Made by a program: the position numbers and the translations under genes
Assembly: GCA_049302075.1 (NCBI GenBank)
Contig: JBAQLS010000025.1
Span: 125,378-189,377, forward strand
Reading direction: 5' to 3'
Origin: Carboxydocellales bacterium
Lineage (GTDB): Bacteria > Bacillota > GCA-003054495 > Carboxydocellales > JAJZTU01
DNA: 64,000 nt
Notes under the pieces: generated by a model
What the model was told of the DNA's origin: nothing
What the model saw: only the letters and a program-made list of their open reading frames with translations
Databases searched by the model: none
In this document: positions 9,728-38,180 of the stretch, piece after piece
How the letters are laid out: every line of letters starts with the position of its first letter
Position numbering within the stretch: position 1 is the first letter of the stretch

Positions 9728-9774
9728 ATTCAGGCTGTTGAAAATTCACGACTTTATTAGGAGGTGACTGAACT

Positions 9775-10242: not shown

Positions 10243-10325
10243 AACAGATATACCAGCATAATAATTGACAAAGGGATAGGTTTAAGTTCATAATTAAACT
10301 AGTTCAAATATCAAAAGCCTAATCG

Positions 10326-11534: not shown

Positions 11535-11536
11535 TA

Positions 11537-12055: not shown

Positions 12056-12079
12056 GGTAGGATGGAAGGATGGTAATCG

Positions 12080-13186: not shown

Positions 13187-13258
13187 AAGGAAACCCTAAA
13201 TCTGGGATGAATATACCCGGAAGCAGGGTTTTTCTGGTCGTTAATCGTACTATGATGT

Positions 13259-16180: not shown

Positions 16181-16405
16181 AATTCCCCGTCTAGACATCC
16201 ATTCCACTAACGTGGCACCAACAGTATATGAAAATTAACACGTTAATTTTCAGGATAGCTTGTCGCCAGAATTACCAAGGTCATTACGGCTGTTAAAATT
16301 CAGGATAGCTTGTCGCCAGAATTGCCAAGACCCTCGACGTACAAAGAGTACGCCTGTGGCCTTGGCAATTCTGCTTCCGTGCTATACGGGTTTTTCAATC
16401 AGCCT
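16169..16405 (+). repeat. Composite or nested cluster of the intergenic repeat family: 5' end fragment, unrelated palindromic insert, partial copy, full copy
   Basis: GCAGGCTGTTAAAATTCCCCGTCTAG occurs at 16169. The perfect palindrome GAAAATTAAC-AC-GTTAATTTTC lies at 16229-16250. AGGATAGCTTGTCGCCAGAATT(A/G)CCAAG is duplicated, and a full copy ends ..ACGGGTTTTTCAATCAGCCT. Confidence 0.8.
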
Positions 16406-16483
16406 ACTAGGGTTTCTTTACGCCTTATCAAAGGGTATGATATAATTTAATGCTAGGAACGGTAGATTACTAGGGAGGACAAA

Positions 16484-19165
16484 ATGGAAATCATCGTCAG
16501 CCATAATAATACAGATTTTGATGGGCTTGCTTCCATGGTCGCTGCTAAAAAGCTTTACCCTGAAGCGGAATTAGTCTTTGCAGGTAAGCTGTGTCGCAAT
16601 GTAGAAGATTTTATGGGCCTACATAAGGATACTTTAACAGTGCATATGGCTAAGGATATTCCCCAGGAACGGGTAGATAAGCTGATTCTGGTAGACACTA
16701 AAACCCGCAGCCGGTTAGGACATTTACAAAAATTAGCAAGCCAAACCGGAATCACCGTACACATTTATGACCATCACCCCCGAACGGAACAAGATGTGGT
16801 AGGTACTCTGGAGGTAGTGGAGCCTCTAGGCGCTACCACCACCCTTTTGGTGGAGCTTATCCAGGAAGCGTGCTTAGCAATTAACTCCTTTGAAGCCACT
16901 ATTTTAGCCCTAGGGGTTTATGAGGATACCGGCTGTCTAACTTTCTCCACTTCCACTTCAAGGGATGCTGCAGCCATTGCCTTTCTTTTGGAGCATGGGG
17001 CAAATCTAAAAATAATTGCCGACTTTATCGGCCGCCCCCTGAGTGAGCCACAGAAGAATCTGCTCAATACCCTGATTCTGTCGGCGCAACATTTTCTCAT
17101 TCACGGGACCAAGGTGCTAGTAGCCAAGTCAACCGTGGACGAATATATTGGCGGCTTGGCCCTGCTTACTCATAAACTTGGGGAGATTGAGAGTGTAGAT
17201 GTAATAATAGCTGTAGTGGAAATGGAGGATCGGGTGCACATTGTGGCCCGGAGCCGAGTTGATCATGTAAGTGTATCCGATATTTTGGAGGCCTTTGGAG
17301 GCGGAGGGCACGACAAAGCTGCTTCAGCCACCATTAAGGACATTCATGTGGATGAAGTACAGCGTCGGCTATTACAGTTGCTTCAGGAAAGAATTAAACC
17401 GGAAATTGCCGCTGCCCAGTTAATGACCGCCCCGGTTAAAACTGTATTTCCGGAAACCAGCATCGATGAGGCGGGTAAAATCATGCTTCGTTACGGCCAC
17501 TCCGGCCTGCCGGTGGTTAATCCCAACCTGGACATTGTAGGGATTATCTCCCGTAGAGATGTGGATAAAGCCAAACACCACGGTCTGGGACATGCCCCCG
17601 TTAAAGGCTATATGTCTCGTCGGGTTGTCTCCGTTACACCGGATGTGCCACTGCCGGAAATCCAAAGATTGTTAATCGATAACCATATCGGGCGCCTTCC
17701 CGTAGTGGAAAATAGTCGGCTTTTAGGAATAGTATCTCGGACAGACGTCCTACGAACGCTGCATGGGGCAAGTTATCCCGAAACCTATCAGAAAATTTAT
17801 CTCCCCGATGGCGAGCGCCAGAAACAAGACGGTAAAGTGCTTACCGAGCTGATGTTAGAAAGACTGCCGGAAAAAATTCGGGATATCCTAGGCAAAATCT
17901 GTTACCTTTCCTTTCACAAAAACTATCAGGTCTACGTAGTAGGAGGTTTTGTTCGAGATCTACTGCTGAATGTAGAGAATTTTGATATCGATTTAGTGGT
18001 GGAGGGTGACGGTATCAGCTTTGCTAGATTGTTAGCAGAATTTTTCTGTGGCCGAGTTAAAATTCATGAAAAGTTTGGCACCGCGATTGTTGTGTTGCCA
18101 GATGGTTTTAAAATCGATGTAGCCACAGCCCGGACAGAATTTTATGAATACCCAGCTGCCCTGCCGATGGTAGAAAACTCCACCCTGAAGGAAGACCTTT
18201 ACCGCCGGGATTTTACCATTAATGCCATGGCCCTGGATTTAACCAAGGATAACTTTGGGGAATTGGTCGACCATTTCGGTGCCCGAAGGGATTTGGAGCG
18301 TCAGGTGGTGCGTATCCTGTATACCTTGAGCTTTGTAGAAGATCCCACTCGGATTTTCCGAGCAATCCGCTTTGAACAGCGCTATGATTTTACCATGGAA
18401 CCTCAAACTCTGGAACTGGCTAAAAAGGCTATAAAGGACAATTGGCTGCAAAAGCTGTCCTATGATCGAATTAGAGAGGAACTACGGCATATTTTCAATG
18501 AGCAGAATCCGATTAAGGCCATTAGCCGGATGCGTGAACTAGGCTTATGGAAGACTATCATGCCAGAGATTGCCTTTAATGATGAGATCAGGAGGGTTGT
18601 GGACAACCTGCCCCTAGCTAACAACTTAGTCGCTAAAGAGATAGTTAATTTCCGTGACCTGCATCCTTGGTTAACATATTTTACAGCCATGGTGCACCAA
18701 CTGGATAACTCTACTGTTGAGGAAATTTGCGAACGTTTTAAGTTAACTAATGATGACCAGCGGATTGTCAAAGATTCGGTACTTAGTTGGGAAGCTGCCT
18801 TAAAGATTTTAGATACCGAGGAGGAGGTTCTCTTAAGTACAGTTTCCCGAACCATTGGGGAACAATCGGAGGAAGCCTGTGCCTTTATTCTGGCCAAAGC
18901 CCAGAATCTAAGGGTCTGGGAACTAGTCCAAAAATACCTAAATCGGGTTAAGGTAAGTAAACTCGAGATTGATGGCAATGACTTAAAAAATATCGGCTGT
19001 CCTAAAGGACCTATTTACGGTCAAATCCTCCAAAGAGTTTGGGAAGCTAAACTGGACAACTTAGCCATGGGCAAGGAAGCTGAACTGCGTTTAGCCGGAA
19101 AGCTGTTAAAACAAGTACTGGAAGATGGACAAGAGTTGGTGGAAGGAGCAGGGGTAAATGTTTGA
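16484..19165 (+). CDS. Multidomain DHH/DHHA1 phosphoesterase - tandem CBS - poly(A) polymerase/CCA-adding-type nucleotidyltransferase
   Basis: An N-terminal HNNTDFDG..DHH region, two CBS-like segments (MTAPV..; YMSRRVVSV..), then GGFVRDLLL..DIDLVV.. and RDFTINA motifs of the PcnB/Cca head domain. Confidence 0.8.
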   Translation: MEIIVSHNNTDFDGLASMVAAKKLYPEAELVFAGKLCRNVEDFMGLHKDTLTVHMAKDIPQERVDKLILVDTKTRSRLGHLQKLASQTGITVHIYDHHPRTEQDVVGTLEVVEPLGATTTLLVELIQEACLAINSFEATILALGVYEDTGCLTFSTSTSRDAAAIAFLLEHGANLKIIADFIGRPLSEPQKNLLNTLILSAQHFLIHGTKVLVAKSTVDEYIGGLALLTHKLGEIESVDVIIAVVEMEDRVHIVARSRVDHVSVSDILEAFGGGGHDKAASATIKDIHVDEVQRRLLQLLQERIKPEIAAAQLMTAPVKTVFPETSIDEAGKIMLRYGHSGLPVVNPNLDIVGIISRRDVDKAKHHGLGHAPVKGYMSRRVVSVTPDVPLPEIQRLLIDNHIGRLPVVENSRLLGIVSRTDVLRTLHGASYPETYQKIYLPDGERQKQDGKVLTELMLERLPEKIRDILGKICYLSFHKNYQVYVVGGFVRDLLLNVENFDIDLVVEGDGISFARLLAEFFCGRVKIHEKFGTAIVVLPDGFKIDVATARTEFYEYPAALPMVENSTLKEDLYRRDFTINAMALDLTKDNFGELVDHFGARRDLERQVVRILYTLSFVEDPTRIFRAIRFEQRYDFTMEPQTLELAKKAIKDNWLQKLSYDRIREELRHIFNEQNPIKAISRMRELGLWKTIMPEIAFNDEIRRVVDNLPLANNLVAKEIVNFRDLHPWLTYFTAMVHQLDNSTVEEICERFKLTNDDQRIVKDSVLSWEAALKILDTEEEVLLSTVSRTIGEQSEEACAFILAKAQNLRVWELVQKYLNRVKVSKLEIDGNDLKNIGCPKGPIYGQILQRVWEAKLDNLAMGKEAELRLAGKLLKQVLEDGQELVEGAGVNV

Positions 19166-19769
19166 TATATATAATCTGGCAGCGATTATACCGGCTATGG
19201 TTATAGGTTTAACTCTACATGAGTATGCCCACGCCAAAGTAGCCGATATGTTAGGGGACAGTACTGCTAAAATGCTAGGCAGAGTGACCCTGGATCCCCT
19301 TAAGCATTTAGATCCCTTAGGGACAATATTATTATTTGTCGTAGGTTTTGGTTGGGCTAAACCAGTACCCATTACCCCCTCTAACATTCGAGGCAACCAG
19401 CGACTAGGCGAAATCTGGATTTCTTTAGCTGGTCCGGCTGCTAACTTAGTAATTGCTTTTGGGTCACTACTGATTTATAACTGGTTTGCCTCTGACCTAG
19501 GGACGATAGGACAGACAATCATAAGAAAAATGGTGCAGTTGAACATACTGCTGGCTGCCCTGAATTTACTCCCTATCCCGCCTTTGGACGGCTCTTCCTT
19601 GTTGGTAAACCTATGGAAACGCCCTCCAGGCTGGGTGAGTTTTCTGCAGAACAATGGGATGGTAGTTTTAATATTGTTAATGCTAAGCGGTGGTTTAGGC
19701 ATAATTCTTGGTCCTGTAATGAGTGTATTTTATACCATACTGAGCACCTTGGCCAATATAATCAGTTAG
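19158..19769 (+). CDS. Site-2 protease family (M50) membrane metalloprotease
   Basis: HEYAHA zinc motif and NLLPIPPLDG motif. Confidence 0.8.
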   Translation: MFDIYNLAAIIPAMVIGLTLHEYAHAKVADMLGDSTAKMLGRVTLDPLKHLDPLGTILLFVVGFGWAKPVPITPSNIRGNQRLGEIWISLAGPAANLVIAFGSLLIYNWFASDLGTIGQTIIRKMVQLNILLAALNLLPIPPLDGSSLLVNLWKRPPGWVSFLQNNGMVVLILLMLSGGLGIILGPVMSVFYTILSTLANIIS

Positions 19770-19800
19770 CAGAAATAAGTTATTACAAGGAGTTGACGAG

Positions 19801-20787
19801 ATGAGCAAAGGAACGATATTAAGTGGAATGCGTCCTACTGGCAGGCTGCATATTGGGCATTTAAGCGTACTAGACAACTGGGTAAAATTACAGTCAGAGT
19901 ATAACTGTTTTTTTATGGTGGCGGACTGGCATGCTTTAACCACTAATTTTGAAGATACAACTAATATTAAGCAGCACACCCGGGAAATGGTGATGGACTG
20001 GCTAAGTGCCGGTCTAGACCCGGGAAAAAGCGCTATTTTTGTCCAATCTCATATTCATCAGCATACCGAACTACATTTAATTTTTTCCATGCTAACCCCC
20101 ATCTCCTGGCTGGAGCGCTGTCCTACTTTCAAGGATCAGGTGCAGCAGTTAGGTGAACAAGGCAAAGACATTAATACCTATGGTTTTCTGGGTTATCCCT
20201 TGCTGCAGGCCGCGGACATTTTACTATACAAAGGCAACGCCGTTCCAGTCGGAGAAGACCAGTTACCCCACGTGGAAATGACCAGAGAAGTAGCCAGGCG
20301 CTTTAACTTCATGTACAACACCAGCCTGTTCCCAGAGCCCAAGGCTATTCTGGCCAAGGTATCCATGCTTCCCGGTACAGACGGTCGTAAAATGAGTAAA
20401 TCCTATAACAACGATATCGCCATCGGAGCCCCCAGCTCCGAGATTCAAGCCAAGGTACGCAGCATGATTACCGACCCTGCCCGAGTACGCAAAGATGACC
20501 CTGGCAACCCGGACGTCTGCATAGTCTACACCTACCAAAAAATTTACAACCCTACTGCAACCGAGGAAATTGCCGCCGAATGCCGCAAAGCCGGCATCGG
20601 CTGTGTAGCCTGCAAGAAAAAGCTAGCCGACCAGATGGATCTAGTCCTCACCCCCTACAGGGAGCGTCGTGAAGCACTAACCGCCAACCCCAAACAGGTA
20701 GACGAAATCCTCGCCGCCGGTGACCGCAAAGCAGCCGCCACCGCCGCCAAGACTATCGCAGAAGTACGCAATGTATTAGGTTTTTAA
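19801..20787 (+). CDS. trpS: Tryptophan--tRNA ligase
   Basis: GMRPTGRLHIGH (HIGH) and KMSKS motifs. Confidence 0.95.
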   Translation: MSKGTILSGMRPTGRLHIGHLSVLDNWVKLQSEYNCFFMVADWHALTTNFEDTTNIKQHTREMVMDWLSAGLDPGKSAIFVQSHIHQHTELHLIFSMLTPISWLERCPTFKDQVQQLGEQGKDINTYGFLGYPLLQAADILLYKGNAVPVGEDQLPHVEMTREVARRFNFMYNTSLFPEPKAILAKVSMLPGTDGRKMSKSYNNDIAIGAPSSEIQAKVRSMITDPARVRKDDPGNPDVCIVYTYQKIYNPTATEEIAAECRKAGIGCVACKKKLADQMDLVLTPYRERREALTANPKQVDEILAAGDRKAAATAAKTIAEVRNVLGF

Positions 20788-21070
20788 ACAGGCGACACAC
20801 CCAAGGTATGGCAAGATGTAGATTTTGTCCCAAATCAGTATTAGATTATCTCATGATTTGTCCAGAATGGGACAAGCAATAAAATCGGCGAAGAATTTGG
20901 CAGCAAAGACTGCCCATACACCAGAAACTTAGTCTAGTTACTTTTTCAGCACTTTACCGCATGCAGTTTTATTTAACGCAAGCAGTTAATCTCAAGCTTT
21001 TTACTGCATGCAGTTTATCTCAAACATTTAATATATGCACTTTATCGAAAAGGCTATTAAGCACAACCCA

Positions 21071-21290
21071 GGTCGGATACCTGTCCCGAGTTGGCGGGCT
21101 CCTGGTGGAGTACCGTAGCAGCTTTTAGCGCAGATGGCCAATAAAATTGACCTTTCCGACAGGACGTCGGAAACCTGGACACCTAGGCACGGATGCCGTA
21201 TTGTCCAGGTTGGTCAATTTTATTAGGCTATCCAGCTTAGAGCTGCACGGTATGGAACTAAGAGCCCCCAACCGGGACAGGTATTCGACC
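21071..21290 (+). other. 220-nt near-perfect hairpin (about 75 bp of paired arms plus a branched tip): candidate structured RNA or long-TIR element
   Basis: Arm 21071-21152 pairs with 21208-21290 (hand-folded). The mismatches include several G.T pairs that are wobble-compatible only on the + strand. The tip carries hairpins TTCCGAC-AGGAC-GTCGGAA and CCTGGACA..TGTCCAGG. Confidence 0.45.
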
Positions 21291-21357
21291 GGAGACTAAG
21301 ACATGCATAAAGCATGCACAAAAGCTTGCACAATCGGAAAGGGGAGGAGGAACTAAC

Positions 21358-22107
21358 TTGGCTTACCAAATTAAGCTAGACGAATTTGAAGGCCCCTTTG
21401 ACCTGCTCTTCCACCTGATTGACAAAAATGAAGTGGATATCTATGACATTCCCATTGCCAAGATAACTGACCAGTACCTGGAATATATTGCCCAACTCCA
21501 AATCTTGGACTTGGATGTAGCTAGCGAATTTTTAGTGATGGCGGCCAACCTTTTAGCCATTAAAGCTCGGACATTAATACCCAAGCTCCCCAAGGAAGAA
21601 TTAGAGGATGAACTAAGTCTAGATCCTAGGGATGAGTTGGTTGAACGCTTGTTAGAATATCGGAAGTTCAAACAAGTAGCCGAACTACTTAAGGAGCGGG
21701 AAAAAAACCAGGGCAAGGTTTTTACTAGATTTAACGAAGAAGAAATGTTTAGTTCCCTATTTAGTGTGGATAATCCTTTAGAGGGAATTAGCCTAAATGA
21801 CTTGATTACTGCGTTACAAGAGGTTTTAAATCGAGTTGAAGAAGATGTCCTTCCTCCCGAAATACCCCGAGAGGAATATAGCATTAGAGATAAAATGCGG
21901 GAAATTATTCGCCGATTGGTCTTTTACCCGAATGGAGTAGTTTTTAGCCAGTTGTTTGTTAAGCAGAAAATTAACCGGGTGGAAGTTGTAGTCACCTTTT
22001 TAGCCATCTTAGAGTTGATGAAAGTTAAAAAGGTGGCTATCCATCAATCCCGGGCTTTTGATGAAATTACCGTGTATGCACGCCGGGAGGAAGTGGCCGG
22101 TTCGTAA
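21358..22107 (+). CDS. scpA: Segregation and condensation protein A
   Basis: FEGPFDLLFHLI.. is the ScpA N-terminal signature. GGGGAGGAGG precedes the TTG start. Confidence 0.9.
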   Translation: MAYQIKLDEFEGPFDLLFHLIDKNEVDIYDIPIAKITDQYLEYIAQLQILDLDVASEFLVMAANLLAIKARTLIPKLPKEELEDELSLDPRDELVERLLEYRKFKQVAELLKEREKNQGKVFTRFNEEEMFSSLFSVDNPLEGISLNDLITALQEVLNRVEEDVLPPEIPREEYSIRDKMREIIRRLVFYPNGVVFSQLFVKQKINRVEVVVTFLAILELMKVKKVAIHQSRAFDEITVYARREEVAGS

Positions 22108-22172
22108 CCTGATACCTTTGAGAACGGGGGGGGATAACCATAGCTGTACTATTTCATGCTGAAACCAAGGCA

Positions 22173-22718
22173 GTGCTGGAATGTTTGCTTTTCGTAGCCA
22201 GTGAGCCTGTTTCTCTGGCCCGTCTGGCGGAAATTGCCGAAATCGATACTCGGGATGCTGCCGAACTGCTAAAGGAGCTACAGGAGGATTACCGCCTGGG
22301 CAAACGAGGGATTCAGATTACCGAAATTGCAAACGGATACCAGATGAACACTAAACCGGAAATGGCCTCCTATATAGAAAGGCTCTATCGGCCTCAGGCT
22401 AATTACGGACTGTCCAAAGCCGCTCTGGAAACTCTAGCCATCGTGGCTTATAAGCAGCCCATCACCAGGGGAGAAATGGAATTGATTCGGGGGGTTAAAG
22501 TGGACCGAGCAATTAACACCTTAGGTGAAAAAGACTTGGTCCAAGAGGTTGGGCGGAAGGAAGGGGCAGGACGTCCCGTCTTATTTGGTACAACAGATAA
22601 ATTCTTGCAGCACTTCGGGTTGAAAACTCTGGAGGAATTGCCCAGCCTGGAGGAGTTTATTGTCCAACATAGTGAGGATGAGCTGGAAGCAGCCGAAACT
22701 GTTCTGGATGAAGATTAA
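22173..22718 (+). CDS. scpB: Segregation and condensation protein B
   Basis: LLFVASEPVSL.., ..GYQM.TK.. and ..LSKAALETLAIVAYKQPITR motifs. Confidence 0.9.
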   Translation: MLECLLFVASEPVSLARLAEIAEIDTRDAAELLKELQEDYRLGKRGIQITEIANGYQMNTKPEMASYIERLYRPQANYGLSKAALETLAIVAYKQPITRGEMELIRGVKVDRAINTLGEKDLVQEVGRKEGAGRPVLFGTTDKFLQHFGLKTLEELPSLEEFIVQHSEDELEAAETVLDED

Positions 22719-22833
22719 ACTGGGCAGGGGAAATGGCATGCAGGAAATTATTACGAGTAGGAATAGCCTTAGCTACAGATGCACACACTAAGCTGCTGGA
22801 AAAAACAGGGGAGTCCCAAGGGGGGACAGCTTT

Positions 22834-23478
22834 TTGTGGTGGTTACTGGTTTTGGCGATATTGCTTATTTTGTGCGGTCTATTACTGATGATGCCGGTCA
22901 GGGTGAATTTCTTGTACCAACGCCACGACAGCGATGATTTATGCCAAATAAAAATCTCCTCTTTTGGAGGGTTAATTAAAGTAAACATCGCCATACCTAT
23001 TGTGGAGCAAAGGTTTAAGTGGCTATGGCCTTTTTTTCGTTTTGTTTTGCGTAGTCGAGCCTGGGGGGTTCAACTAAAGGAAGTAACCTACCTGAAACCA
23101 CCGGAATGGTCCTGGGACGGTATCCGGCTATGGCTGAATAAAATGCACAGCGTTTTGTCCGCAGTAAAACCCAGTATGAGCTATGTTCTATCTAAAGGGA
23201 AAATCCAACAAATTTCTTTACAGACCAAGCTGGGGACGGAAGATGCCGCCGCTACTGGCATACTGGCCGGTTTGGTTTGGGGACTAAATAGCACCTTTTT
23301 TGCCTGGTTAACTCACCGAGTGCGGAAAGTTGAAGCTAGCCCCACCATATCTGTAGTTCCCGTTTTTAACGCCCCAACCTTTGCTTTTGACATACATTGC
23401 ATATTTGAGGTGGGGGCGGGTCATATTATTATTGCTGGTGTTACTGCCATCAGGAATATGTGGCGGCAAAGGGGGTGA
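22834..23478 (+). CDS. YtfI-like (DUF2953-type) sporulation-associated membrane protein
   Basis: It has an N-terminal TM helix and sits immediately upstream of ytfJ, overlapping it, as in Bacillus. The family assignment is from memory only. Confidence 0.5.
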   Translation: MWWLLVLAILLILCGLLLMMPVRVNFLYQRHDSDDLCQIKISSFGGLIKVNIAIPIVEQRFKWLWPFFRFVLRSRAWGVQLKEVTYLKPPEWSWDGIRLWLNKMHSVLSAVKPSMSYVLSKGKIQQISLQTKLGTEDAAATGILAGLVWGLNSTFFAWLTHRVRKVEASPTISVVPVFNAPTFAFDIHCIFEVGAGHIIIAGVTAIRNMWRQRG

Positions 23479-23900
23479 AGTACATGAGTGACCATCCCAT
23501 AGAAGCGCTCATGAAGACAGCCATGGAAAGTATCAAGGAAATGGTGGATGTTAATACAATTGTCGGAGATGCAGTGGAAACCCCGGATGGTACTGTGATT
23601 ATACCCATAACCCGGGTTTCCTGTGGCTTTGCCGCCGGTGGCGGTGAGTTTGGAGCTGTAGGAAAGGATAATAATCAGAACAATGGTAAGACCCATCCCT
23701 TTGGAGGGGGTAGTGGAGCAGGGGTTTCTGTTCAGCCGGTGGGTTTTTTGGTGGTGTGCAACAACCAGGTCAGATTAATTCCGGTAGACGGAAATGCCGT
23801 GATCGACCGGATAATTGATGTGGCCCCTCAGTTTATTTCCCAAGTCCAAGATATGTTTAGCTCCAAGCCTAATAAAAGCGAATACCAAGCAGGCTGTTGA
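23460..23900 (+). CDS. ytfJ: GerW/YtfJ-family sporulation protein (likely start ATG 23484)
   Basis: HPIEALMKTAMESIKEMVDVNTIVGD..TPDGTVIIP..V..GFAAGGGEF is typical of YtfJ. The last codons (A-G-C) and the stop come from the repeat element. Confidence 0.85.
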   Translation: MAAKGVKYMSDHPIEALMKTAMESIKEMVDVNTIVGDAVETPDGTVIIPITRVSCGFAAGGGEFGAVGKDNNQNNGKTHPFGGGSGAGVSVQPVGFLVVCNNQVRLIPVDGNAVIDRIIDVAPQFISQVQDMFSSKPNKSEYQAGC

Positions 23901-24013
23901 AATTCCCCGCCTAGCGTTGTCACCAGAATTGCCAAGGTCCTCGATGTACGATCAGTACACCTGCGGCCTTGGCGATTCTGCTTCCTAGCCAGACGGGTTT
24001 TTCAACAGCCTGC
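23889..24013 (+). repeat. Full-length copy of the ~120-nt intergenic repeat (archetype)
   Basis: TIRs are GCAGGCTGTTGAAA / TTTCAACAGCCTGC. The internal stem is CAGAATTGCCAAGG / CCTTGGCGATTCTG and the apical hairpin is TGTAC-GATCA-GTACA. Confidence 0.9.
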
Positions 24014-24136
24014 CTGGGGTCTGAAATTCCCCGCCTAGCGTTGTCACCAGATGTTTCAAGGTACTCGATGTACAATAAGTACACCTGCGGCCTTGAAACA
24101 TCTGGCTTCGCGCTATACGGGTTTTTTAACAGCTTG
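24014..24136 (+). repeat. Second, tandem full-length copy with a different but self-complementary internal stem
   Basis: It has the same flanks and loop as 23889-24013, but the stem is CCAGATGTTTCAAGG / CCTTGAAACATCTGG, a perfect 15 bp. Confidence 0.9.
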
Positions 24137-24334
24137 CTATCTTGCATGTAAAATTCCCATCTAATTTTTCGCAAGATCTGCCGCCGGAAATTTATATAAG
24201 CAAACGTAAATATCTAAAACAAAGTAATTTGTTTTTCTAAAGCAGGAAAAACTCTATAGATGCTGAATTAAATACAAGCTATTTTTATACTTTTTATACT
24301 TTTTATACTTTGCACCCAAGACAGGAGGTCTTCT

Positions 24335-25576
24335 ATGTTTTTCCATACGACAGCAGGCTCTACAAGGGTTTTGGCATTAGCCCTGTCGCTACTGTTTATA
24401 TTTCAACCCTTTGGCTCAGCTCAAACCAACCCCAAAGCTAATAATAACCCCCAAGCTAATAACAACCCCAAATCCAGCACAAACTCCCAAACTAATAACC
24501 CCCAAGGTATAGTTGTCCTTCCTCCTCCACCCATCGTTGAAGCTGGTTCCGCGGTTTTAATGGAGGCGGCCTCAGGGCAGGTATTATTCAGCAAAAATCC
24601 CCACGAGCAAAAGCCTCAGGCCAGCACTACCAAGATTACTACCGCTATTGTCGCTCTGGAAAAGGGGAAACTAACTGATATAGTAAAAATAAGCAAGCAG
24701 GCTGCGGAAACCCTGGAAGCTGCTATTTGGTTAGCAGAGGGTGAAGAACTTACCCTAGAGCAACTAATGTATGCCTTGCTGTTGTTTTCCGCTAATGATG
24801 CCGCCTCAGCCATAGCTGAACATATTGAGGGTAGTGAAGAACAATTTGTGGCAATGATGAATGCTAAAGCCCAAGAAATTGGGGCTAAAGACAGTCATTA
24901 CGTCAATCCCCATGGTCTAGATCGACCCGAACATTATTCTTCAGCCTACGACTTAGCTATTTTAGCCAGGTATGGCTTAACCAAAGTGCCAGGCTTTGCC
25001 CAACTAGTGCGCACCCGGGAAAAGTCCATTCCTTGGGATGGTCACCCCTACCTGCGGGTGCTACGCAACCGGAATAAACTTTTGAAATCCTACCCCGGGG
25101 CTGACGGGGTGAAAACCGGCTTTACTAATAAAGCCGGGCGCTGCCTAGTTGCTTCTGCTACCCGTGGGAATATGCAATTAATTGCTGTGGTAATGGACTC
25201 TCCGAATATGTTTCGGGAAACAGCCGCTATGCTGGATTGGGGTTTTGCCAACTATACTAAGCAAGAATTGGTTATAAGGGATCGTACTATCCGACCGGTT
25301 CGGGTGATTAACGGCCTATCTGGATGGGTTAATGCCAAAGCCTCCCGAGAGGTTATCCTGGCCTTAACCCCAGAAGCTGCGGCTAAATTAAAAATGGAAA
25401 CCATCCTAGCGGAAAGTCTAGAGGCACCGGTAGTAAAGGATCAGAAGCTGGGGGTGATTTTAATCTCGCCACCAGGTCAACCTCAAATAACTGTTGCTTT
25501 GCTCAGTGCCAGCTCTATTGCTCGCAAAAGCAGGTGGCAATTATTTTGGGAATACCTCAAGAACTGGTTTAGCTAA
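24335..25576 (+). CDS. dacB: D-alanyl-D-alanine carboxypeptidase (S11), sporulation-type DacB, with an Asn/Pro-rich N-terminal linker
   Basis: ASTTKITTA (SxxK), SANDAA (SxN) and KTGFT (KTG) motifs. spmA and spmB follow, as in Bacillus. Confidence 0.85.
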   Translation: MFFHTTAGSTRVLALALSLLFIFQPFGSAQTNPKANNNPQANNNPKSSTNSQTNNPQGIVVLPPPPIVEAGSAVLMEAASGQVLFSKNPHEQKPQASTTKITTAIVALEKGKLTDIVKISKQAAETLEAAIWLAEGEELTLEQLMYALLLFSANDAASAIAEHIEGSEEQFVAMMNAKAQEIGAKDSHYVNPHGLDRPEHYSSAYDLAILARYGLTKVPGFAQLVRTREKSIPWDGHPYLRVLRNRNKLLKSYPGADGVKTGFTNKAGRCLVASATRGNMQLIAVVMDSPNMFRETAAMLDWGFANYTKQELVIRDRTIRPVRVINGLSGWVNAKASREVILALTPEAAAKLKMETILAESLEAPVVKDQKLGVILISPPGQPQITVALLSASSIARKSRWQLFWEYLKNWFS

Positions 25577-25723
25577 CCTATAGCCAACCTATAGCCACGT
25601 TACTTCCAGGTTGCGTGCTTTCCTTTCCCCGGGTCTACTCTCTACCTTTGGCTCATATACTTGAAATTGAAGTTAACATTTGTCCAACTTAAGCTTCAAG
25701 CATTGAGAAGGTAGGTAATCGCC

Positions 25724-26323
25724 GTGGTAAATACAATTTGGCTGGGCCTGATGGTCATTGGCATAGTAGTTGCCGCTTTGACGGGACGAATTGATGCTGT
25801 GACTATGGCTGCTTTTGACGGGGCCCAGTTAGCCGTGGAAGTGGCTCTGGGCTTAATCGGGGTAATGACTCTTTGGCTGGGGATTATGAAGCTAGCAGAG
25901 CAGGCTGGTCTTGTCCAGGCTTTAGCCAGACTACTCCGACCTCTGACTGGTTGGTTATTTCCTAGCATTCCTAGCAATCATCCTGTCCTGGGCACCATAA
26001 TCCTGAATATTAGTGCTAATATTCTAGGTTTAAGTAATGCCGCTACACCCATGGGTTTAGCAGCTATGCAAGAGCTGCAGAAGCTTAATCGAGGGTCTAA
26101 AGCAGAAGCCAGTGAGGCAATGTGTACCTTTTTGGCTTTAAATACCGCCTGCATAACCCTGGTACCCACCACTATAATTGGCATCAGAATAAATGCCGGT
26201 TCTGCCAACCCTACAGAAATTGTAGGTACTACCCTGTTTGCCACTACAGTAGGGATGACCATAGCTTTAGTTGTTGACCGAATTTTCCGGGTGTTATACC
26301 GTCGGAAAAACCCTTGGAGGTGA
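25724..26323 (+). CDS. spmA: Spore maturation protein A
   Basis: Nucleoside-recognition-type membrane protein in the conserved dacB-spmA-spmB order. Confidence 0.85.
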   Translation: MVNTIWLGLMVIGIVVAALTGRIDAVTMAAFDGAQLAVEVALGLIGVMTLWLGIMKLAEQAGLVQALARLLRPLTGWLFPSIPSNHPVLGTIILNISANILGLSNAATPMGLAAMQELQKLNRGSKAEASEAMCTFLALNTACITLVPTTIIGIRINAGSANPTEIVGTTLFATTVGMTIALVVDRIFRVLYRRKNPWR

Positions 26324-26329
26324 CACCTA

Positions 26330-26863
26330 ATGCTGGCAGAACCAATTAAAGAAATTTCCCGCTGGGTTGTACCGCTAATGCTCCTAGTAATTCCCTTAGT
26401 GGCTTTTCTGCGTAGGGTGCCTGTATACGAAGCCTTTGTAGAGGGAGCACAACAGGGTTTTACTACCGCGATAAAAATCATCCCGTTTTTGGTGGCTATG
26501 CTGGTAGCCATTAGTATTTTTAGGGCTTCGGGAGCTATGGAGGTTTTAGCTGCGCTGATGGCTCCCCTCGTTAAACCACTAGGAATTACCCCGGAGGTTT
26601 TGCCTCTGGCAATTATGCGGCCATTATCCGGCAGTGGAGCTTTAGGCCTAGCCACCGAATTGATTAAAGTTCATGGCCCGGACAGCTTAATTGGCCGCCT
26701 AGCTTCCACCATGCAGGGCAGTGCGGATACCACCTTTTATGTGCTGACTGTCTATTTTGGGGCGGTAGGTATTAAACAATATCGGTATGCCCCTGCTGTA
26801 GGGCTAATTGCCGACATCAGCGCATTTTTAGCTTCGGTGTGGATAGTAGGACGGGTTTTTTAG
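26330..26863 (+). CDS. spmB: Spore maturation protein B
   Basis: Membrane protein following spmA, in SpmB-like context and of SpmB-like length. Confidence 0.85.
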   Translation: MLAEPIKEISRWVVPLMLLVIPLVAFLRRVPVYEAFVEGAQQGFTTAIKIIPFLVAMLVAISIFRASGAMEVLAALMAPLVKPLGITPEVLPLAIMRPLSGSGALGLATELIKVHGPDSLIGRLASTMQGSADTTFYVLTVYFGAVGIKQYRYAPAVGLIADISAFLASVWIVGRVF

Positions 26864-26912
26864 CAGCACTTACTTTGGACATAATAGCTACATAGGATGG
26901 GAGGCAGTTAAA

Positions 26913-27638
26913 ATGGAGCGTTTGCAAAAATATTTGGCCCATGCCGGAGTGGCTTCGAGGAGGTATTGTGAAGAATTAATTCTCCAAGGCAAGGTTGCCG
27001 TTAACGGACAAGTAGTGCTGGAGTTAGGGACTAAAGTTAATCCCCTGGAGGATACCGTTACCGTTGACGGTAAACCAGTCAGCCCAAACCAGCAAAGCAT
27101 CTACATCCTGCTCTATAAACCAGGTGGCTATGTCTCCACCGTTAAGGATCCAGAGGGTCGAAAAACTGTAATCGACTTATTAAGTGGTCAAAAGCAACGG
27201 GTGTACCCGGTAGGCAGGCTGGACTATGATACTGAAGGGTTAATCCTGTTAACCAATGATGGGGAGTTAACTCATGCCTTAACCCACCCTAGCCGCCAAG
27301 TAGACAAGACTTACTTAGCCGTAGTCCAGGGTATTCCCTCTGCTAATGAATTAGAACAACTACGCCGGGGTATTCTGTTAACAGACGGGATAACCGCTCC
27401 TGCTCAAGTGAGTTTAATTAAATCGGCAGGCCTTAAAACCTGGTTAGAAATAACCATCCACGAAGGTCGTAACCGCCAAGTACGCAGGATGTTTGAACAA
27501 ATTGGCTATCCCGTATTATTTCTAAAGCGCATCCGGCTAGGCTTTTTAACATTGCAGGGATTAACCGTCGGAAAATATCGTTTACTGCGCCCCCAGGAAG
27601 TTGCCGAGCTCCGGAGCTTGGCGGGAATCAAAGTTTAA
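26913..27638 (+). CDS. rluB: RluB/RsuA-family pseudouridine synthase
   Basis: N-terminal S4 domain (RLQKYLAHAGVASRR) and the GRLDYDTEGLILLTNDG catalytic motif. Confidence 0.9.
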   Translation: MERLQKYLAHAGVASRRYCEELILQGKVAVNGQVVLELGTKVNPLEDTVTVDGKPVSPNQQSIYILLYKPGGYVSTVKDPEGRKTVIDLLSGQKQRVYPVGRLDYDTEGLILLTNDGELTHALTHPSRQVDKTYLAVVQGIPSANELEQLRRGILLTDGITAPAQVSLIKSAGLKTWLEITIHEGRNRQVRRMFEQIGYPVLFLKRIRLGFLTLQGLTVGKYRLLRPQEVAELRSLAGIKV

Positions 27639-27672
27639 CCCGAGCAAGTCGGTGAGGTTGCACAACGGGTAG

Positions 27673-28929
27673 GTGAGCTACATGGATAAGGAGTTAGCCC
27701 AAAACATCTTGGATAGTGTTAATTTAGGCCTGGTCTATACGGATCAACTAGGCTTGGTTACCTATTGCAACCCAGCTGCCGCCAAGCTGCTGAACATACC
27801 CCGGGGAAATTTGCTGGGTAAACACCTAGCAAACTATGTACTAACCCCACCTTTTAACACCCCGAAAATTCAAAGTATAGCAGAGCAGGCTATTCAGCAC
27901 CTTTCCACTCCAGTACACAACAACCGGGGTGAGTTGACGGGAGTAATTGTAGTGCTAAATAATATAACTGAACTCATCCACACCCAACAGCAATTAATCA
28001 ACTCCAGGGATGAGCTTAAAATACTCCACGAGGCAGCCCAATTAATGAATTCTAGCCTGGAATTAAAAAATATTCTCAACAAGCTATTGGAAATCATTAA
28101 GAGAGTGGTGGATTATTATTGTTGCCGCATTTACCTCTTTCAACAGCTAACTGGAGAATTAAGACTAGAGGCTGAATATGAGCAGCAACTGGACAGCTGC
28201 CAACAACCTTCTGAAGCTTTGTTAGCGCAAATATTTACCACTGGGATAACCATTTCCCAAGCAGGAGAACTGAGTAGTCTAACTATTCCCCTAATCAGAG
28301 GGCAGGAGAAGTTAGGGGTTATTTGTATCAGACTTGCTAATTCTGTAGAGGTACCGGAAAATGTCCAGCGCTTATTAATGAATCTAGCCGATTTAGCCTG
28401 TTTAGCCATTAAAAATGGCCAAAGATTTCAGCGTACCCATGAACTAGCAACCATTGACGGCTTAACTAAGTTATACAACCGTCAATATTTTGAGATGATT
28501 ATTAAACGGGAAATTAACCGTTCCCAACGCTTCCAGACCAACCTTAGCATGGTAATGGTTGATGTTAATGGTCTGAAGGAGATTAACGATAGACTAGGTC
28601 ATTCTGTAGGTGATGAAATATTAATCCAGACTGCTAGTATTCTGCAACAAGCAGTACGGAGCATAGACTATGTATTCCGGTACGGTGGAGACGAAATGGT
28701 AATTGTGTTGCTCGATGCGGATGAACAGACTACCGGTAGGGTAGTTCAGCGTATCAGAGAGAGAGAGACTAAGTGGAACCTGCAACGGGAGCAATCCCTG
28801 CCAACCTTGTCCCTAAGTATTGGTCTTGCCGTAACTACTGGTGATAAAACAGCGGAGGAATTATTAGATCTGGCCGATCAGCGGATGTATGAGGATAAGG
28901 AGCAGCATTACCGGGATACAGGCTGTTGA
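27673..28929 (+). CDS. PAS-GAF-GGDEF diguanylate cyclase-family protein (motif reads GGDEM)
   Basis: DGLTKLYNRQYF.. and ..RYGGDEMVIV.. The last two codons (G-C) and the stop lie in the repeat element. Confidence 0.85.
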   Translation: MSYMDKELAQNILDSVNLGLVYTDQLGLVTYCNPAAAKLLNIPRGNLLGKHLANYVLTPPFNTPKIQSIAEQAIQHLSTPVHNNRGELTGVIVVLNNITELIHTQQQLINSRDELKILHEAAQLMNSSLELKNILNKLLEIIKRVVDYYCCRIYLFQQLTGELRLEAEYEQQLDSCQQPSEALLAQIFTTGITISQAGELSSLTIPLIRGQEKLGVICIRLANSVEVPENVQRLLMNLADLACLAIKNGQRFQRTHELATIDGLTKLYNRQYFEMIIKREINRSQRFQTNLSMVMVDVNGLKEINDRLGHSVGDEILIQTASILQQAVRSIDYVFRYGGDEMVIVLLDADEQTTGRVVQRIRERETKWNLQREQSLPTLSLSIGLAVTTGDKTAEELLDLADQRMYEDKEQHYRDTGC

Positions 28930-29037
28930 AATTCCCCGTCTAGCTTTGTCAACATAACTGACAAGGAACTCAAGGTACAGCAGTACGTCTGCGGTTTTAT
29001 CATAGCGGGTTTTCGTGCTAAACGGTTTTTCTAACAC
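28919..29037 (+). repeat. Degenerate copy of the intergenic repeat
   Basis: The 5' end CAGGCTGTTGAAATTCCCCGTCTAGCTTTGTCA is intact. The internal stem and 3' TIR are decayed (..AACGGTTTTTCTAACACC). Confidence 0.7.
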
Positions 29038-29055
29038 CCTAAGTGACTATAAAAT

Positions 29056-29324: not shown

Positions 29325-30641
29325 GTGTTTATTAACGAGCTTTATCTTAAGAATTTCAGAGGATTTGATGAAAAAATCTTTAGATTTGATAAACGCTTTT
29401 CTGTGTTTGCTGGTGAAAATGGCAGTGGGAAAACTGCAGTATTGGAAGGATTATGCGTTGCATTAGGTGGTTGGTTATTCGGCTTTGATGGTCTTGAAGG
29501 GAAAGACAAAAGAAATATTTATAAAAATGATATAAGGAAGATTTCAGCAAAAGTATCTTCTGCAATATTGCCTCAAACTCCTGTACAGGTTAAATGTTTA
29601 ACAAAATATAGGGACAGAAATATTGAGTGGAGTAGAAGTGTAGATAAGGTAGGTGGACATACAACATACGGTGGATTGAGCGAGGTTAATAAAGTTACTA
29701 AAGAAATTAGCAACAAAATTTATAAAGCTGAAGATACAGAAATAATATTGCCTATTGTAGCTTATTATAGTGCTGCAAGGTTATGGTCTGAACCAATACA
29801 AAAAAGCAAAAACTATCAAAAGGAAACAATACGTATAAAGGGTTATTCAAGGGCATTAAGTTTCGGACAATCTATTGATAATGTTATGAAATACATTGAC
29901 ATATTAGCACATAGGGCAAACAAGAATCCAGATGACAGTGCTGAATTTGATGCAATAATGGAAGCCTTAAAAAAATGTTTGGATAATATAGTTTCAAATG
30001 TAAAAATTGATTACGATATAAAATCTGCGGAAATCGTAGTAATTCATAATGAAAACTTAAAACTTCATTATTCACAATTAAGCGATGGGTATCGTTGTAT
30101 GATAAGCTTAATTGCTGATATTGCATATAAAATGTCAATATTAAACCCACATCTCAAAGAATTTGCTATTGCCGAAACCACAGGTGTTGTCTTAATTGAT
30201 GAACTAGATTTACATCTGCATCCTAAGTGGCAGCGGGTAGTTGTAAACGATCTTAAAAAAATATTCCCGAAGGTGCAATTTATAGCTACAACACATTCGC
30301 CTTTCATAATTCAATCATTAGAAGATGGTGAACTTATCACATTAGATAGAAGTATAGATATCGAGTACTCTGGAGAAAGCATTGAAGACATTGCTGAAGA
30401 CGTTATGGGAATTGAAATCCCACAATATAGCAAACACAAGCAATCTATGTATGAAGCAGCATCTAAATATTTTGCTGCCCTGAACAATGTTACAACTAAA
30501 GTAGATGTGGAGGAATTAAAGGTAGAGTTGGATTTGTTATCTGCAAAATATGGTGACAACGTAGCTTATTATGCTTTTATTGAACAGAAATATTATGCAA
30601 AAAAAGCTGAGTTGGAGGAAAAAAATGAGACCTGTAGATAA
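29325..30641 (+). CDS. ptuA: Septu-like defense ATPase (PtuA-type ABC/SMC-like AAA ATPase)
   Basis: FRGF..FSVFAGENGSGKTAVLEGL (Walker A), VVLIDELDLHLHP (Walker B) and ATTHSP. The gene is AT-rich and its 3' end overlaps the HNH gene by 17 nt. Confidence 0.7.
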   Translation: MFINELYLKNFRGFDEKIFRFDKRFSVFAGENGSGKTAVLEGLCVALGGWLFGFDGLEGKDKRNIYKNDIRKISAKVSSAILPQTPVQVKCLTKYRDRNIEWSRSVDKVGGHTTYGGLSEVNKVTKEISNKIYKAEDTEIILPIVAYYSAARLWSEPIQKSKNYQKETIRIKGYSRALSFGQSIDNVMKYIDILAHRANKNPDDSAEFDAIMEALKKCLDNIVSNVKIDYDIKSAEIVVIHNENLKLHYSQLSDGYRCMISLIADIAYKMSILNPHLKEFAIAETTGVVLIDELDLHLHPKWQRVVVNDLKKIFPKVQFIATTHSPFIIQSLEDGELITLDRSIDIEYSGESIEDIAEDVMGIEIPQYSKHKQSMYEAASKYFAALNNVTTKVDVEELKVELDLLSAKYGDNVAYYAFIEQKYYAKKAELEEKNETCR

Positions 30642-31323
30642 AGGAGCGTCACCATACGACAGAATTAATCATTATACGGATGCCCAACCTTACTTAGAGA
30701 ATAGAATTGGGATTTACTGTTCTTATTGTGAGTTACCACTAAGACATACCCCTCATGTAGAACATAAGGAATCCAAAAATAGTGGCGGTGCATTGACTGA
30801 TTGGAAAAATCTACTATTTTCTTGTGTTTATTGTAATAGCAGAAAGTTAGAAAAAATAAAAGCTGGACAAGCAAATCTTTGTATTTGGCCTGATAACGAT
30901 AACACATTTATGGCATACAATTACGAAAATGGAATGCCAACTTTGAATGATTCCTACCTTTCACAACTAGGGCAGGCTACATATGATAAAGCCAAAAAAC
31001 TTTTTGATATAGTGATGCTAGATAATGTACCTTCAAACCCGAAAGATAAAGATAGACGTTGGAAAAATAGAGTGGAAGCGTACAGTATTGCAAAGGATCT
31101 ACTTAGTGATTGGATAGTTATGAAGGAAACAGAATATAAGGATAAAACCATTAAAAGTATTAAAAATAATGCTATTTATTCAGGCTTTTTCTCAGTTTGG
31201 ATGACGGTTTTTAAAGACGAGGTTGAAATTAAGAATAAACTAATTGATGTTTTTATTGGAGCAGCAAAAAATTGTTTCGATGCAAATGGTAATCCTATAA
31301 GAAGAAATGGTGGAATTATATAA
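30625..31323 (+). CDS. ptuB: Septu-like HNH endonuclease (PtuB / TIGR02646-type)
   Basis: CSYCE..HVEHK..NLLFSCVYCNSRK is an HNH/Zn-finger pattern. GGAGGA lies 5 nt before ATG 30625; the track start at 30571 is probably too early. Confidence 0.7.
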   Translation: MRPVDKGASPYDRINHYTDAQPYLENRIGIYCSYCELPLRHTPHVEHKESKNSGGALTDWKNLLFSCVYCNSRKLEKIKAGQANLCIWPDNDNTFMAYNYENGMPTLNDSYLSQLGQATYDKAKKLFDIVMLDNVPSNPKDKDRRWKNRVEAYSIAKDLLSDWIVMKETEYKDKTIKSIKNNAIYSGFFSVWMTVFKDEVEIKNKLIDVFIGAAKNCFDANGNPIRRNGGII

Positions 31324-33373: not shown

Positions 33374-33838
33374 ATGGTCAAAGTGCGAGTAGGGGAGGAT
33401 TTAGCCCATAGTGATATTCGGGTTAAGGTTAGGCTTGATTTTAAAGGCAGCAGCAAGCCCGGTCGCTTCATCTTCGGAGGTAAGCCTACCGAAAAGGTTG
33501 CCGAAGAGCTCCGGGAGCACCAGGCCGCCTTTCTGCGGAATGTACCCCTCCAAGGAGTGCGGATAGAAGACTTGGATTTAAGCATGGATGTTTACACTGT
33601 AGTGGACGAAGTGGAGAATCGAGAAGTAGCCTATGCTCCTATCAGTTTGGTGGTTAGGGCGGATTCCCTAGAGGATTTGCTAATGTTTGTAGCTAGGGAT
33701 GAATTTCGCAAAATCGAAATTTTAGAACCAACAGAAATAGTGATGAATAGGTTTGACGTGGAGCGATTGCTCTTTGGGATGAACCGGGAAATAGTGAAAT
33801 ATCGGGATAATCTAGAAAAGAAGCTGAACTCCAGATAA
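33374..33838 (+). CDS. Hypothetical protein
   Basis: GGGAGGAGG precedes the ATG. I recognise no family. Confidence 0.5.
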   Translation: MVKVRVGEDLAHSDIRVKVRLDFKGSSKPGRFIFGGKPTEKVAEELREHQAAFLRNVPLQGVRIEDLDLSMDVYTVVDEVENREVAYAPISLVVRADSLEDLLMFVARDEFRKIEILEPTEIVMNRFDVERLLFGMNREIVKYRDNLEKKLNSR

Positions 33839-33939
33839 TCTCGAACTTAAAGGCCGGGGTTTACTTCCCCGGCCACAGTTATTTTATAAAACCATTTTTA
33901 TCACAGATAGGTTGCTATGCAACCCTTATAGCAATTAGT

Positions 33940-34108
33940 CAAACGGTTTTTTTATACCCGAGTAAGCTGTTAAAAAACCCGTATAGCACGAAAAAAGCTA
34001 TTACAAAACCACAGGCGTACTCTTTGTACGTCGAGGATTTTGTAATAGCTTTTGACAAAGCTAGACGGGGAATTTTAACAGCCGTATAGGCGGGGAATTT
34101 TAACAGCC
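33940..34108 (-). repeat. Full-length repeat copy in reverse orientation, plus duplicated terminal 20-mer fragments
   Basis: AAGCTGTTAAAAAACCCGTATAGCACG...GCTAGACGGGGAATTTTAACAGCC. The internal stem is AAGCTATTACAAAA / TTTTGTAATAGCTT, and an extra GGCGGGGAATTTTAACAGCC lies at 34089-34108. Confidence 0.8.
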
Positions 34109-37973: not shown

Positions 37974-38001
37974 TCTAATTAACCACAGAATTAACCCTAT
38001 A

Positions 38002-38153: not shown

Positions 38154-38180
38154 ATATCTAAGTTTAAGCAACAATTTCAT

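Follow-up and report, generated by a model that had tools for sequence, protein, structure and literature searches.

A covarying, probably mobile hairpin repeat of about 125 nt in a Carboxydocellales chromosome

A 64-kb stretch of DNA from a Carboxydocellales bacterium, a spore-forming Firmicute (GenBank assembly GCA_049302075.1, contig JBAQLS010000025.1, positions 125,378 to 189,377), hereafter called the window, carries a non-coding repeat of about 125 nt. Pfam scans of all 58 main open reading frames (ORFs) indicated that the window is an ordinary chromosomal stretch. Its genes include aro and trp biosynthesis genes, glgA, a CBS-DHH-CCA/poly(A) polymerase gene, scpAB, trpS, an RNase J gene, dacB, and others. 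No transposase or integrase was found among the 58 ORFs; the absence of a transposase had been noted in the original prediction, which was made from the sequence alone. Six full copies of the repeat and at least nine fragments are present. All are located in intergenic spacers or at gene 3' ends, and the spacers separate co-directional genes. The full copies occur in both orientations (four plus, two minus). The sole ORF spanning repeat copies is spurious.

A repeat search of the window grouped the tandem pair described below with copies at 16291-16406, 33961-34083 (inverted), 38001-38123 (inverted), and, more weakly, 28919. The same search gave shorter pieces at 4205, 4263, and 55483. Identity to the reference copies was 69-84%. 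Further pieces were added by an nhmmer profile search, a covariance-model search, and direct reading. The copies and fragments, with terminal inverted repeats abbreviated as TIRs, are as follows.

23889-24013, plus strand: full copy A, with a perfect 14-bp TIR and its apical module at 23940-23966.
24014-24138, plus strand: full copy B, head-to-tail with copy A.
16286-16408, plus strand: full copy between glgA and the CBS-DHH-CCA/poly(A) polymerase gene, with TAC on both flanks.
16168-16196, plus strand: solo 5' end, debris beside copy 16286.
16242-16281, plus strand: slipped 40-nt duplicate of the 5' arm with a 50-nt period, debris beside copy 16286.
33962-34084, minus strand: full copy with TAC on both flanks, downstream of an ordinary terminator (33852-33874).
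34085-34108, minus strand: tandem duplicate of the terminal ~24 nt of copy 33962.
38001-38124, minus strand: full copy between aroH (chorismate mutase) and the trpE leader.
28919-29040, plus strand: degenerate copy in place of the final ~20 codons of a GGDEF gene, whose stop codon it provides.
4205-4262, plus strand: 5'-truncated fragment, 3' half.
4263-4294, plus strand: 5'-truncated fragment, 3' end.
55483-55514, plus strand: 3'-end fragment directly after the stop codon of a metallophosphoesterase gene.
61680-61706, minus strand: solo 5' end of 26 nt, broken at a CTAGC motif, between the LemA and TPM genes.
62546-62600, plus strand: possible remnant, a GGCTGTTAAAAAATCCCGCCT end fused to a short terminator-like hairpin (read by eye).
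63546-63567, plus strand: possible 3'-end remnant, GGTTTTTAATTTAACAGCCTG (read by eye).

The repeat, profile, and covariance searches bore out the copies at the places where the original prediction had put them. Its fragments at 4207, 55482, and 61680 were recovered by nhmmer or the covariance model (4205-4262, 55483-55514, and 61680-61706). Those that it gave at 62541 and 63552 correspond to brief end-like stretches, read by eye near 62546 and 63546, which no model matched. The pieces at 4263-4294, 16168-16196, 16242-16281, and 34085-34108 were absent from that prediction.

In a six-way alignment the mean column identity was 78%, and invariant blocks flank a block that differs in nearly every copy. 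The conserved blocks are a terminal stem (GGCTGTTRAAA), internal loops (CGYCTAGCKTTGTC and GCTATACGGG), and an apical module, TC-CTCRAYGTAC-N5-GTACRCCTGYGG. Five of the six full copies have the TIRs GGCTGTTRAAA / TTTYAACAGCC. The claim that all copies share 14-bp TIRs proved too strong: these are perfect only in copy 23889, with 1-3 differing positions in the others. The left TIR is gone from copy 24014, which has the degenerate CTGGGGTCT where CAGGCTGTT was expected. The left end of copy 23889 provides the TGA stop codon of a ytfJ-like sporulation gene (23460-23900).

Each of the five good copies folds as a single long hairpin. Against shuffled sequences, they gave z values of -4.5 to -9.8 in RNA folding and of -7.5 to -11.1 as single-stranded DNA (ssDNA) on either strand. 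The degenerate copy 28919 folds poorly (z = -1.8). The original prediction held that the central stems are different in each copy and still perfectly complementary. The variable, compensated stems were confirmed, but the perfection was not: copy 23889 has one T.G pair, copy 16286 has small bulges, and copy 28919 is decayed.

Covariation was analyzed in an alignment of 16 copies from six genomes, for which RNAalifold predicts 40 pairs. Paired cells amounted to 92%, compared with 80.0 ± 0.9% in shuffles (none of 500 reached 92%) and 29-40% with slid partners. Both sides had changed in 19 of the 40 pairs, compared with 12.7 in shuffles and 4-11 with slid partners. The number of cells changed on both sides was 89, compared with about 30 and 4-24, respectively. 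Of the covarying pairs, 17 are in the inner helix, one in the basal helix, and one in the 5-bp apical stem. Nearly all changes were from one Watson-Crick pair to another, with few one-sided intermediates. These results indicated that the compensated stem variation is real and beyond chance. It implies a folding constraint or a copying process that restores pairing, not passive decay; the same conclusion in the original prediction thus withstood both controls, which the covariation of the 16 copies well exceeds.

The terminal and apical stems also covary. The TIR pair at alignment columns 11/125 changes by subfamily (T-A in GGCTG/CAGCC, C-G in GGCCG/CGGCC). Within the window, the R/Y position of the TIRs changes jointly, TTGAAA/TTTCAA in some copies and TTAAAA/TTTTAA in others, as read by eye. 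The covarying apical hairpin of the original prediction is real, but the two TGTAC/GTACA copies in the window are the tandem ones and hence represent one event. An independent case of this variant was found in one of the loci that we collected from other genomes (L079; these loci, numbered with L, comprise 1.16 Mb in all), and further compensated tip variants in L071, L063, and L099. At alignment columns 41-45, Desulfocucumis loci L105 and L106 carry GAACC on the 5' arm and L108 carries GGTTC. The two are related by a local inversion of 5 nt, which disrupts pairing and resembles a template-switch product.

The closest relative found is a Bacillota metagenome-assembled genome (MAG). Its locus L111 is syntenic to window 16410-28830, with 87% amino acid identity in an 893-aa neighbor protein and about 76% DNA identity. 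No repeat copy was present in 14.5 kb of L111. Between ytfJ and dacB, where two copies lie in the window, L111 shows a plain terminator hairpin, and the L111 GGDEF gene is about 20 codons longer and is followed by a terminator. In an Eubacteriales MAG that itself bears the repeat (L112), no copy was found in the 305 nt upstream of the orthologous CCA gene. Both comparisons thus showed insertion polymorphism among related genomes. Nested, tandem, slipped, and truncated copies are also present, and together with the absence in relatives they are the signature of a mobile non-autonomous element.

The alignment with L111 indicated that the GGGT-rich flank beside copy 16286 is host sequence. A similar 3'-flank motif beside several other copies therefore suggests a one-sided target preference. 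In other Firmicute copies, direct repeats of 6, 7, 8, and 22 bp were observed after a lineage-specific 3' tail of 6-66 nt. At L001 3025-3240, a copy and its 34-nt tail stand between the two units of a 22-nt direct repeat, itself a complete terminator hairpin. At L108 2450-2640 (Desulfocucumis), a host terminator hairpin holds a copy in its loop. A SINE-like retro-element was considered for the variable tails and duplications; this reading was unsupported, 5'- and 3'-truncated fragments being similarly frequent.

The full-element pattern was found outside the window in one fragmentary MAG only, that of an uncultured Eubacteriales (L001, L002). A looser pattern detected a sister subfamily in Desulfocucumis, Thermincola, another Bacillota MAG, and one metagenome contig. 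In the Thermincola locus L058 (1530-2380), two copies occupy short gaps within a cluster of tRNA genes, antisense to the tRNAs and at a distance of 1-5 nt from the gene ends.

The 27-nt tip, CTCRAYGTAC-N5-GTACRCCTGYGG, was searched in species-representative genomes, and viral contigs were scanned separately. At least 102 stretches matched, compared with about one chance match expected in 1.2e12 positions by our own arithmetic. Among the matches listed, the tip is at the apex of a long hairpin repeat in all but two, from Streptomyces; these two and one match from the viral contigs look like coding sequence. The tip-bearing repeats are lineage-specific, multi-copy, and often at contig ends. Hosts among the matches listed are Oscillospiraceae, Clostridium, Treponema and other Spirochaetes, Myxococcota, Desulfobacterota, Thermoanaerobaculia (Acidobacteriota), Phycisphaeraceae (Planctomycetota), Nitrospirota, Binatota, Gammaproteobacteria, and Margulisbacteria, so that tip-bearing hairpin repeats occur in about ten phyla among these matches. 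In 77 distinct sequences with 53 different flanking 8-mers, 6.75 of the 9 positions on either side of the tip paired with their own partner, compared with 4.73 ± 0.14 when partners were exchanged.

A covariance model built from Firmicute copies only aligned end-to-end with many tip elements (E = 1e-13 to 3e-4), indicating that the similarity reaches beyond the tip. The superfamily has in common an ATCT loop on both arms, which makes a TC/TC mismatch in the top strand and a tandem G.A in the other. Its members also share a 5'-arm loop resembling TGCGTTG and a 3'-arm loop resembling GCCTTG. The window counterparts of the latter two are CGTCTAGCTTTGTC and GCTATACGGG. The fifth pair of the apical stem covaries across the superfamily (GTAC/GTAC, GTAT/ATAC, GTAG/CTAC). 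The window family is a member of a broad superfamily with an unusual conserved core. That the conserved loop is an instance of a cross-phylum motif had escaped the original prediction.

In high-GC phyla the unit is about 200-230 nt, with extra outer arms and TIRs ending in CTAG on both sides. Matched 3-bp flanking repeats (TTA, ATA, TGA, TGA) were observed in four of six Nannocystaceae copies. In ISfinder descriptions, IS5-family elements typically have CTAG and 3-bp TNA targets and IS630 elements typically have TA within CTAG, which makes these families a lead. The terminal stem of the window element is the middle stem of the longer high-GC elements, which indicates that the same inner module is bounded differently by lineage. 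The short form, found in the window, Treponema, and Oscillospiraceae, is closed by its own basal stem and has no outer arms.

When 18 loci were scanned with Rfam, TD-1 and TD-2 RNAs came up next to the element in Treponema. At L060 2880-3060 (minus strand), TD-2 is set within the same hairpin scaffold, in the order ATCTGCGTTGTCGC ... stem ... CTCAACGTA[TD-2]GCCTGCGG ... stem ... GCTCCTAGCATCT. Because it lies between CTCAACGTA and GCCTGCGG, TD-2 replaces the small apical hairpin. A further case was found at L062 6575-6720 (plus strand). At L055 3000-5060, TD motifs are embedded in the scaffold of the short element, in place of its apical hairpin. Weinberg et al. (2007) described TD-1 and TD-2 (RF03155 and RF03162) as probable RNAs of unknown function confined to T. 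denticola. The window copies matched neither RF03162 nor RF03155 at gathering score or E<=10, and with TD-2 (RF03162) they have only the surrounding scaffold in common.

No mobilizing enzyme came to light near the copies. Neighboring ORFs across all loci are housekeeping genes. There was no transposase or recombinase among the 25 commonest Pfam families of the 289 neighboring ORFs, a count in which families with a single ORF are not all listed. All-against-all ORF clustering across the loci gave no shared neighbor protein, and no gene was found between tip halves in the loci, the only inserts being of the TD-2 type. An HUH-Y1 transposase was not matched in the window or the 1.16 Mb of loci, in a weak test with approximate probes and a motif scan.

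[quoted passage not shown] Selection for hairpin formation when the element propagates is, with moderate confidence, the best explanation of the compensated stems. The pairing constraint would then act at mobilization and on DNA. In favor of DNA over a strand-specific RNA are the mixed orientations, the lack of G.T enrichment over A.C, and equally good ssDNA folding by both strands. The element would consist of conserved sequence blocks separated by a helix that needs only to pair. The mobilizing machinery may recognize the conserved blocks on a folded single strand or a cruciform. Only those lineages of active source copies that keep the hairpin would continue to produce copies, and because of this, unconstrained helix positions would drift along source lineages with Watson-Crick compensation. 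Each insertion would be a snapshot of one source lineage, and the inserted copies would then decay, as copy 28919 and the fragments may have done. The original prediction had set the family apart from a MITE. This contrast fails, since presence/absence, nested and truncated copies, TIRs, and duplications in sister lineages are all MITE- or REPIN-like.

Several points weigh against a mobile element of this kind. The window and the 1.16 Mb of loci yielded neither a mobilizing enzyme nor an autonomous element bearing the ends of the repeat. TAC/TAC flanks were observed in two of seven window copies, and a target-site duplication is not clear. The flank and tail features match no single known transposition chemistry. 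The relatives, at only about 76% DNA identity, are too distant for an empty site to be aligned at nucleotide resolution. The boundaries vary by lineage and the inner module is kept, so this module could be a passenger with its own function and not a recognition site. Finally, the 27-nt tip is more conserved than the TIRs, which ordinary MITE biology does not explain.

We put forward another reading tentatively: the inner hairpin (~110-125 nt) may be an ancient, horizontally spread functional nucleic-acid module, and thus a pan-bacterial class of structured mobile element of which only parts have been noticed until now. Its components would be the nearly invariant tip TC-CTCRAYGTAC-N5-GTACRCCTGYGG, the ATCT/ATCT loop, and the TGCGTTG / GCCTTG loops. 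It would be a docking platform for one conserved ssDNA-processing enzyme, possibly of the little-studied class 3 HUH-Y1 group, or alternatively a structured RNA or DNA with its own activity. The vehicles would differ, the module being bare in Firmicutes and spirochaetes and lying within CTAG-bounded or 3-bp-duplicating MITEs elsewhere. The tip could accept extra modules such as TD-2.

A related alternative, possible but doubtful in our estimate, is that the inner hairpin is the true unit, a substrate of an HUH-Y1 enzyme (RAYT-like or class 3) similar to REPINs or repetitive extragenic palindromes (REPs), and that the outer TIR/CTAG arms are a secondary vehicle. The short form would fit this, having its own basal stem and no outer arms, as would the asymmetry of the element with its 3' tail and one-sided flank preference, and the L108 copy within a host terminator loop. 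GTAG-like motifs (CGCAGTAGAT) are present on the bottom strand of high-GC members, and C(T/C)GA is found just 5' of the ATCT loop. According to Quentin et al. (2018; PMC6006769), TnpA-Y1 genes of the rare class 3 occur in Planctomycetes, Acidobacteria, and Proteobacteria; the atypical hairpins on their flanks have CnGA as a 5' foot and number about 600 in one genome. Compared by description only, these hairpins and the superfamily have overlapping phyla, high copy number, weak or atypical hairpins, and a CnGA foot in common. The high-GC members carry CTGA, CCGA, or TTGA (YYGA) beside the ATCT loop, and the first two fit CnGA. However, the Firmicute family does not have the CnGA-ATCT motif in that form, and the reported class 3 range excludes Firmicutes. 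The window family also has no conserved GTAG tag, the weak probes detected no Y1 gene in the window or the 1.16 Mb of loci, and the 3-bp duplications of Nannocystaceae indicate staggered-cut (DDE-type) insertion there.

We also considered a host-kept structured RNA, which we regard as rather unlikely. The repeat would be a 3'-untranslated-region stabilizer, an RNase target, a bidirectional intrinsic terminator, or a small RNA, and the covariation would reflect selection on RNA folding. The copies do lie just downstream of genes. In the Firmicute copies, AAAAATCCCCG ... CGGGTTTTTT bracket the hairpin as an A-tract and a T-tract on both strands (the terminator scanner was unable to score stems this long), and ordinary terminators occupy the same spacers in L111. 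With an A-tract, hairpin, and T-tract on both strands, and with copies replacing terminators of the relative, secondary host use of the mobile element as a bidirectional terminator in this Firmicute is plausible. The conserved unpaired nucleotides of the internal loops across phyla and the classing of the related TD-1 and TD-2 as probable RNAs by their discoverers also agree with an RNA. Orientation does not: the tip-bearing strand was sense in 16 cases and antisense in 12 among all loci with two co-directional neighbors, showing no preference. G.U was not enriched over A.C either. In the 16-copy alignment, with two invariant T.G columns left out, there were 7 G.T and 19 A.C cells, and A.C (227) also exceeded G.T (129) among the non-Watson-Crick cells of the superfamily. 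The comparison of G.U with A.C thus gave a mild excess in favor of the bottom strand, which in three copies is also the more stable one as ssDNA, by 3-4.5 kcal/mol. The copies are not independent, and we read these counts and strand stabilities only as lacking the signature of a top-strand RNA. Moreover, the element is missing in the close relative L111, high-GC relatives have no U-tract, copy 33962 lies behind an existing terminator, and two coding regions are truncated by copies. A guide/target function was also rejected, as the variable stem matched its own flanks over 5.8 nt and the flanks of other copies over 5.5 nt.

The outward ends of two copies give -35-like hexamers, TTAACA (24126-24154) and TTGACA (38124-38153). 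Together with flanking -10-like boxes they form 10/12 sigma-70 matches before dacB and the trpE leader, which are consensus matches only.

Pairing might also be restored mechanically and without selection, by template switching from arm to arm or by hairpin or cruciform repair. We consider this unlikely. It would account for the prevalence of Watson-Crick to Watson-Crick changes and the scarcity of one-sided intermediates, and both the local inversion on one arm in Desulfocucumis (GAACC in L105/L106, GGTTC in L108) and the slippage products adjoining copies are in line with such a process. However, a general correction should erase asymmetries, and those of the element are kept in all copies and phyla (TTGTCAC versus CTTCCG, the TC/TC loop, the asymmetric tip). 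Old copies such as 28919 have decayed uncorrected.

Integron attC sites or parts of a cassette array have practically no chance of being the explanation: the repeats resemble chromosomal-integron attC sites in being ssDNA-folded imperfect palindromes of similar length (~125 nt) with imperfect dyad symmetry, placed just after ORFs and conserved more in structure than in sequence in part of the stem, but their GTTRRRY-like and RYYYAAC-like ends are in reverse order, the tip is conserved and the base variable (the opposite of attC), the copies are in both orientations, housekeeping operons (aro, trp, scpAB, trpS) lie between them, and the window has no integrase. The attC reading and a CRISPR reading were thus rejected on anatomy and context.

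Some neighboring genes deserve mention. The degenerate copy 28919 adjoins a low-GC island directly downstream of it (GC 37%, compared with about 46%), which encodes a Septu anti-phage system at 29325-31323 consisting of a PtuA ATPase (E = 3e-133) and a PtuB HNH nuclease (E = 5e-69). A Fic/DOC-family protein (62736-63491, minus strand) matches the PADLOC candidate defense families PDC-S04 and SoFic, and a possible repeat remnant lies in the upstream region of its gene. Aromatic amino-acid genes are unusually dense (7443-14671, 37599-45101, and 57573-61036). The set comprises aroE, aroC, aroK, aroB, aroH, trpEGDCFBA, DAHP synthase, tyrA, and aroA. A second trpE-like gene is located on the minus strand (55581-57104), and a HutP-family regulator is encoded just upstream of aroH. 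A 585-aa RCC1-repeat protein with a WD40-like RLD fold, uncommon in Firmicutes, is encoded at 22-1779. Three ORFs had no Pfam match: 51441-52919 (minus strand; 492 aa, in a lower-GC stretch of about 41%), 36526-37011 (plus strand), and 33374-33838 (plus strand).

At the level of the window, the family is an ordinary MITE- or REPIN-like repeat that remodels gene ends and may provide terminators or promoter boxes. It is also a clean natural case of structure-constrained evolution in a selfish element, with a small, legible alignment that separates sequence-constrained blocks from a block constrained only to pair. The tip and internal loops across phyla are hard to explain by TIR-based transposition alone and point to a conserved partner; interest would be higher if a specific enzyme turns out to use the tip as its handle, or if the tip is an active nucleic acid. 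The orphan motifs TD-1 and TD-2 can be placed in context, as modules at the tip of a mobile hairpin scaffold. Many matches sit at contig ends, indicating that such repeats break metagenome assemblies, and the model is therefore practically useful.

Among known systems, MITEs such as Correia/NEMIS, ERIC, RUP, Nezha, and, above all, bcr1 are also non-coding elements of 100-170 nt with TIRs and long hairpins. They insert beside or into gene 3' ends, and their ends can provide promoter-like boxes. The window family is non-coding, multi-copy, and below 300 bp, with TIRs and insertion polymorphism, as MITEs are. Unlike with them, no fixed target duplication was seen in the window, no parent insertion sequence with the same TIR was found, and no sequence similarity to classical MITEs was detected. 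An insertion sequence with GGCTGTTGAAA ends, if found, would favor a classical MITE. To our knowledge, conservation of an internal motif across phyla has not been reported for MITEs.

REPINs, which are REP doublets folded into hairpins, and the RAYT HUH-Y1 transposases that mobilize them offer a further parallel. REPINs and the window family are both intergenic hairpins of ~70-130 nt, as dense as roughly one per 5-10 kb, and both are non-autonomous. According to Bertels and Rainey (PMC3116915), REPINs have conserved ends and a spacer that needs only to pair and often shows compensatory changes; they form tandem clusters and have an asymmetric tail. The window family shares the ends, spacer, compensatory changes, clusters, and tail. 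It differs in having no discrete REP unit, as neither arm holds a short self-palindrome, and in having no conserved GTAG tag, as the terminal tetranucleotide varies (GCAG, GTAG, GTAA, TTAG, GGAG). No RAYT was found in the window or the collected loci. The window family is most conserved at the hairpin tip and not at the ends, and whereas REPIN families are lineage-specific, the tip here is common to many phyla.

The original prediction had presented the family and its compensated stems as novel. As a phenomenon they are not, because compensated hairpin spacers have been described in REPINs (PMC3116915) and compensatory base changes were reported for bcr1 of the Bacillus cereus group (PMC3184786). 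The novelty of the family itself held up in the searches made. Rfam 15 gave no family match in the window at gathering score or E<=10, and none for the element itself in high-GC members. BLAST of three family members against plasmids and phages gave no match. The motif string was not found in a literature search, nor was a description of the family in the MITE, IS630, and CTAG literature searched. For the near-invariant cross-phylum tip with changing arms, boundaries, and tip modules, no description was found in the accessible literature. Compensated hairpin spacers are thus already known from REPINs and bcr1, and the window family itself is new.

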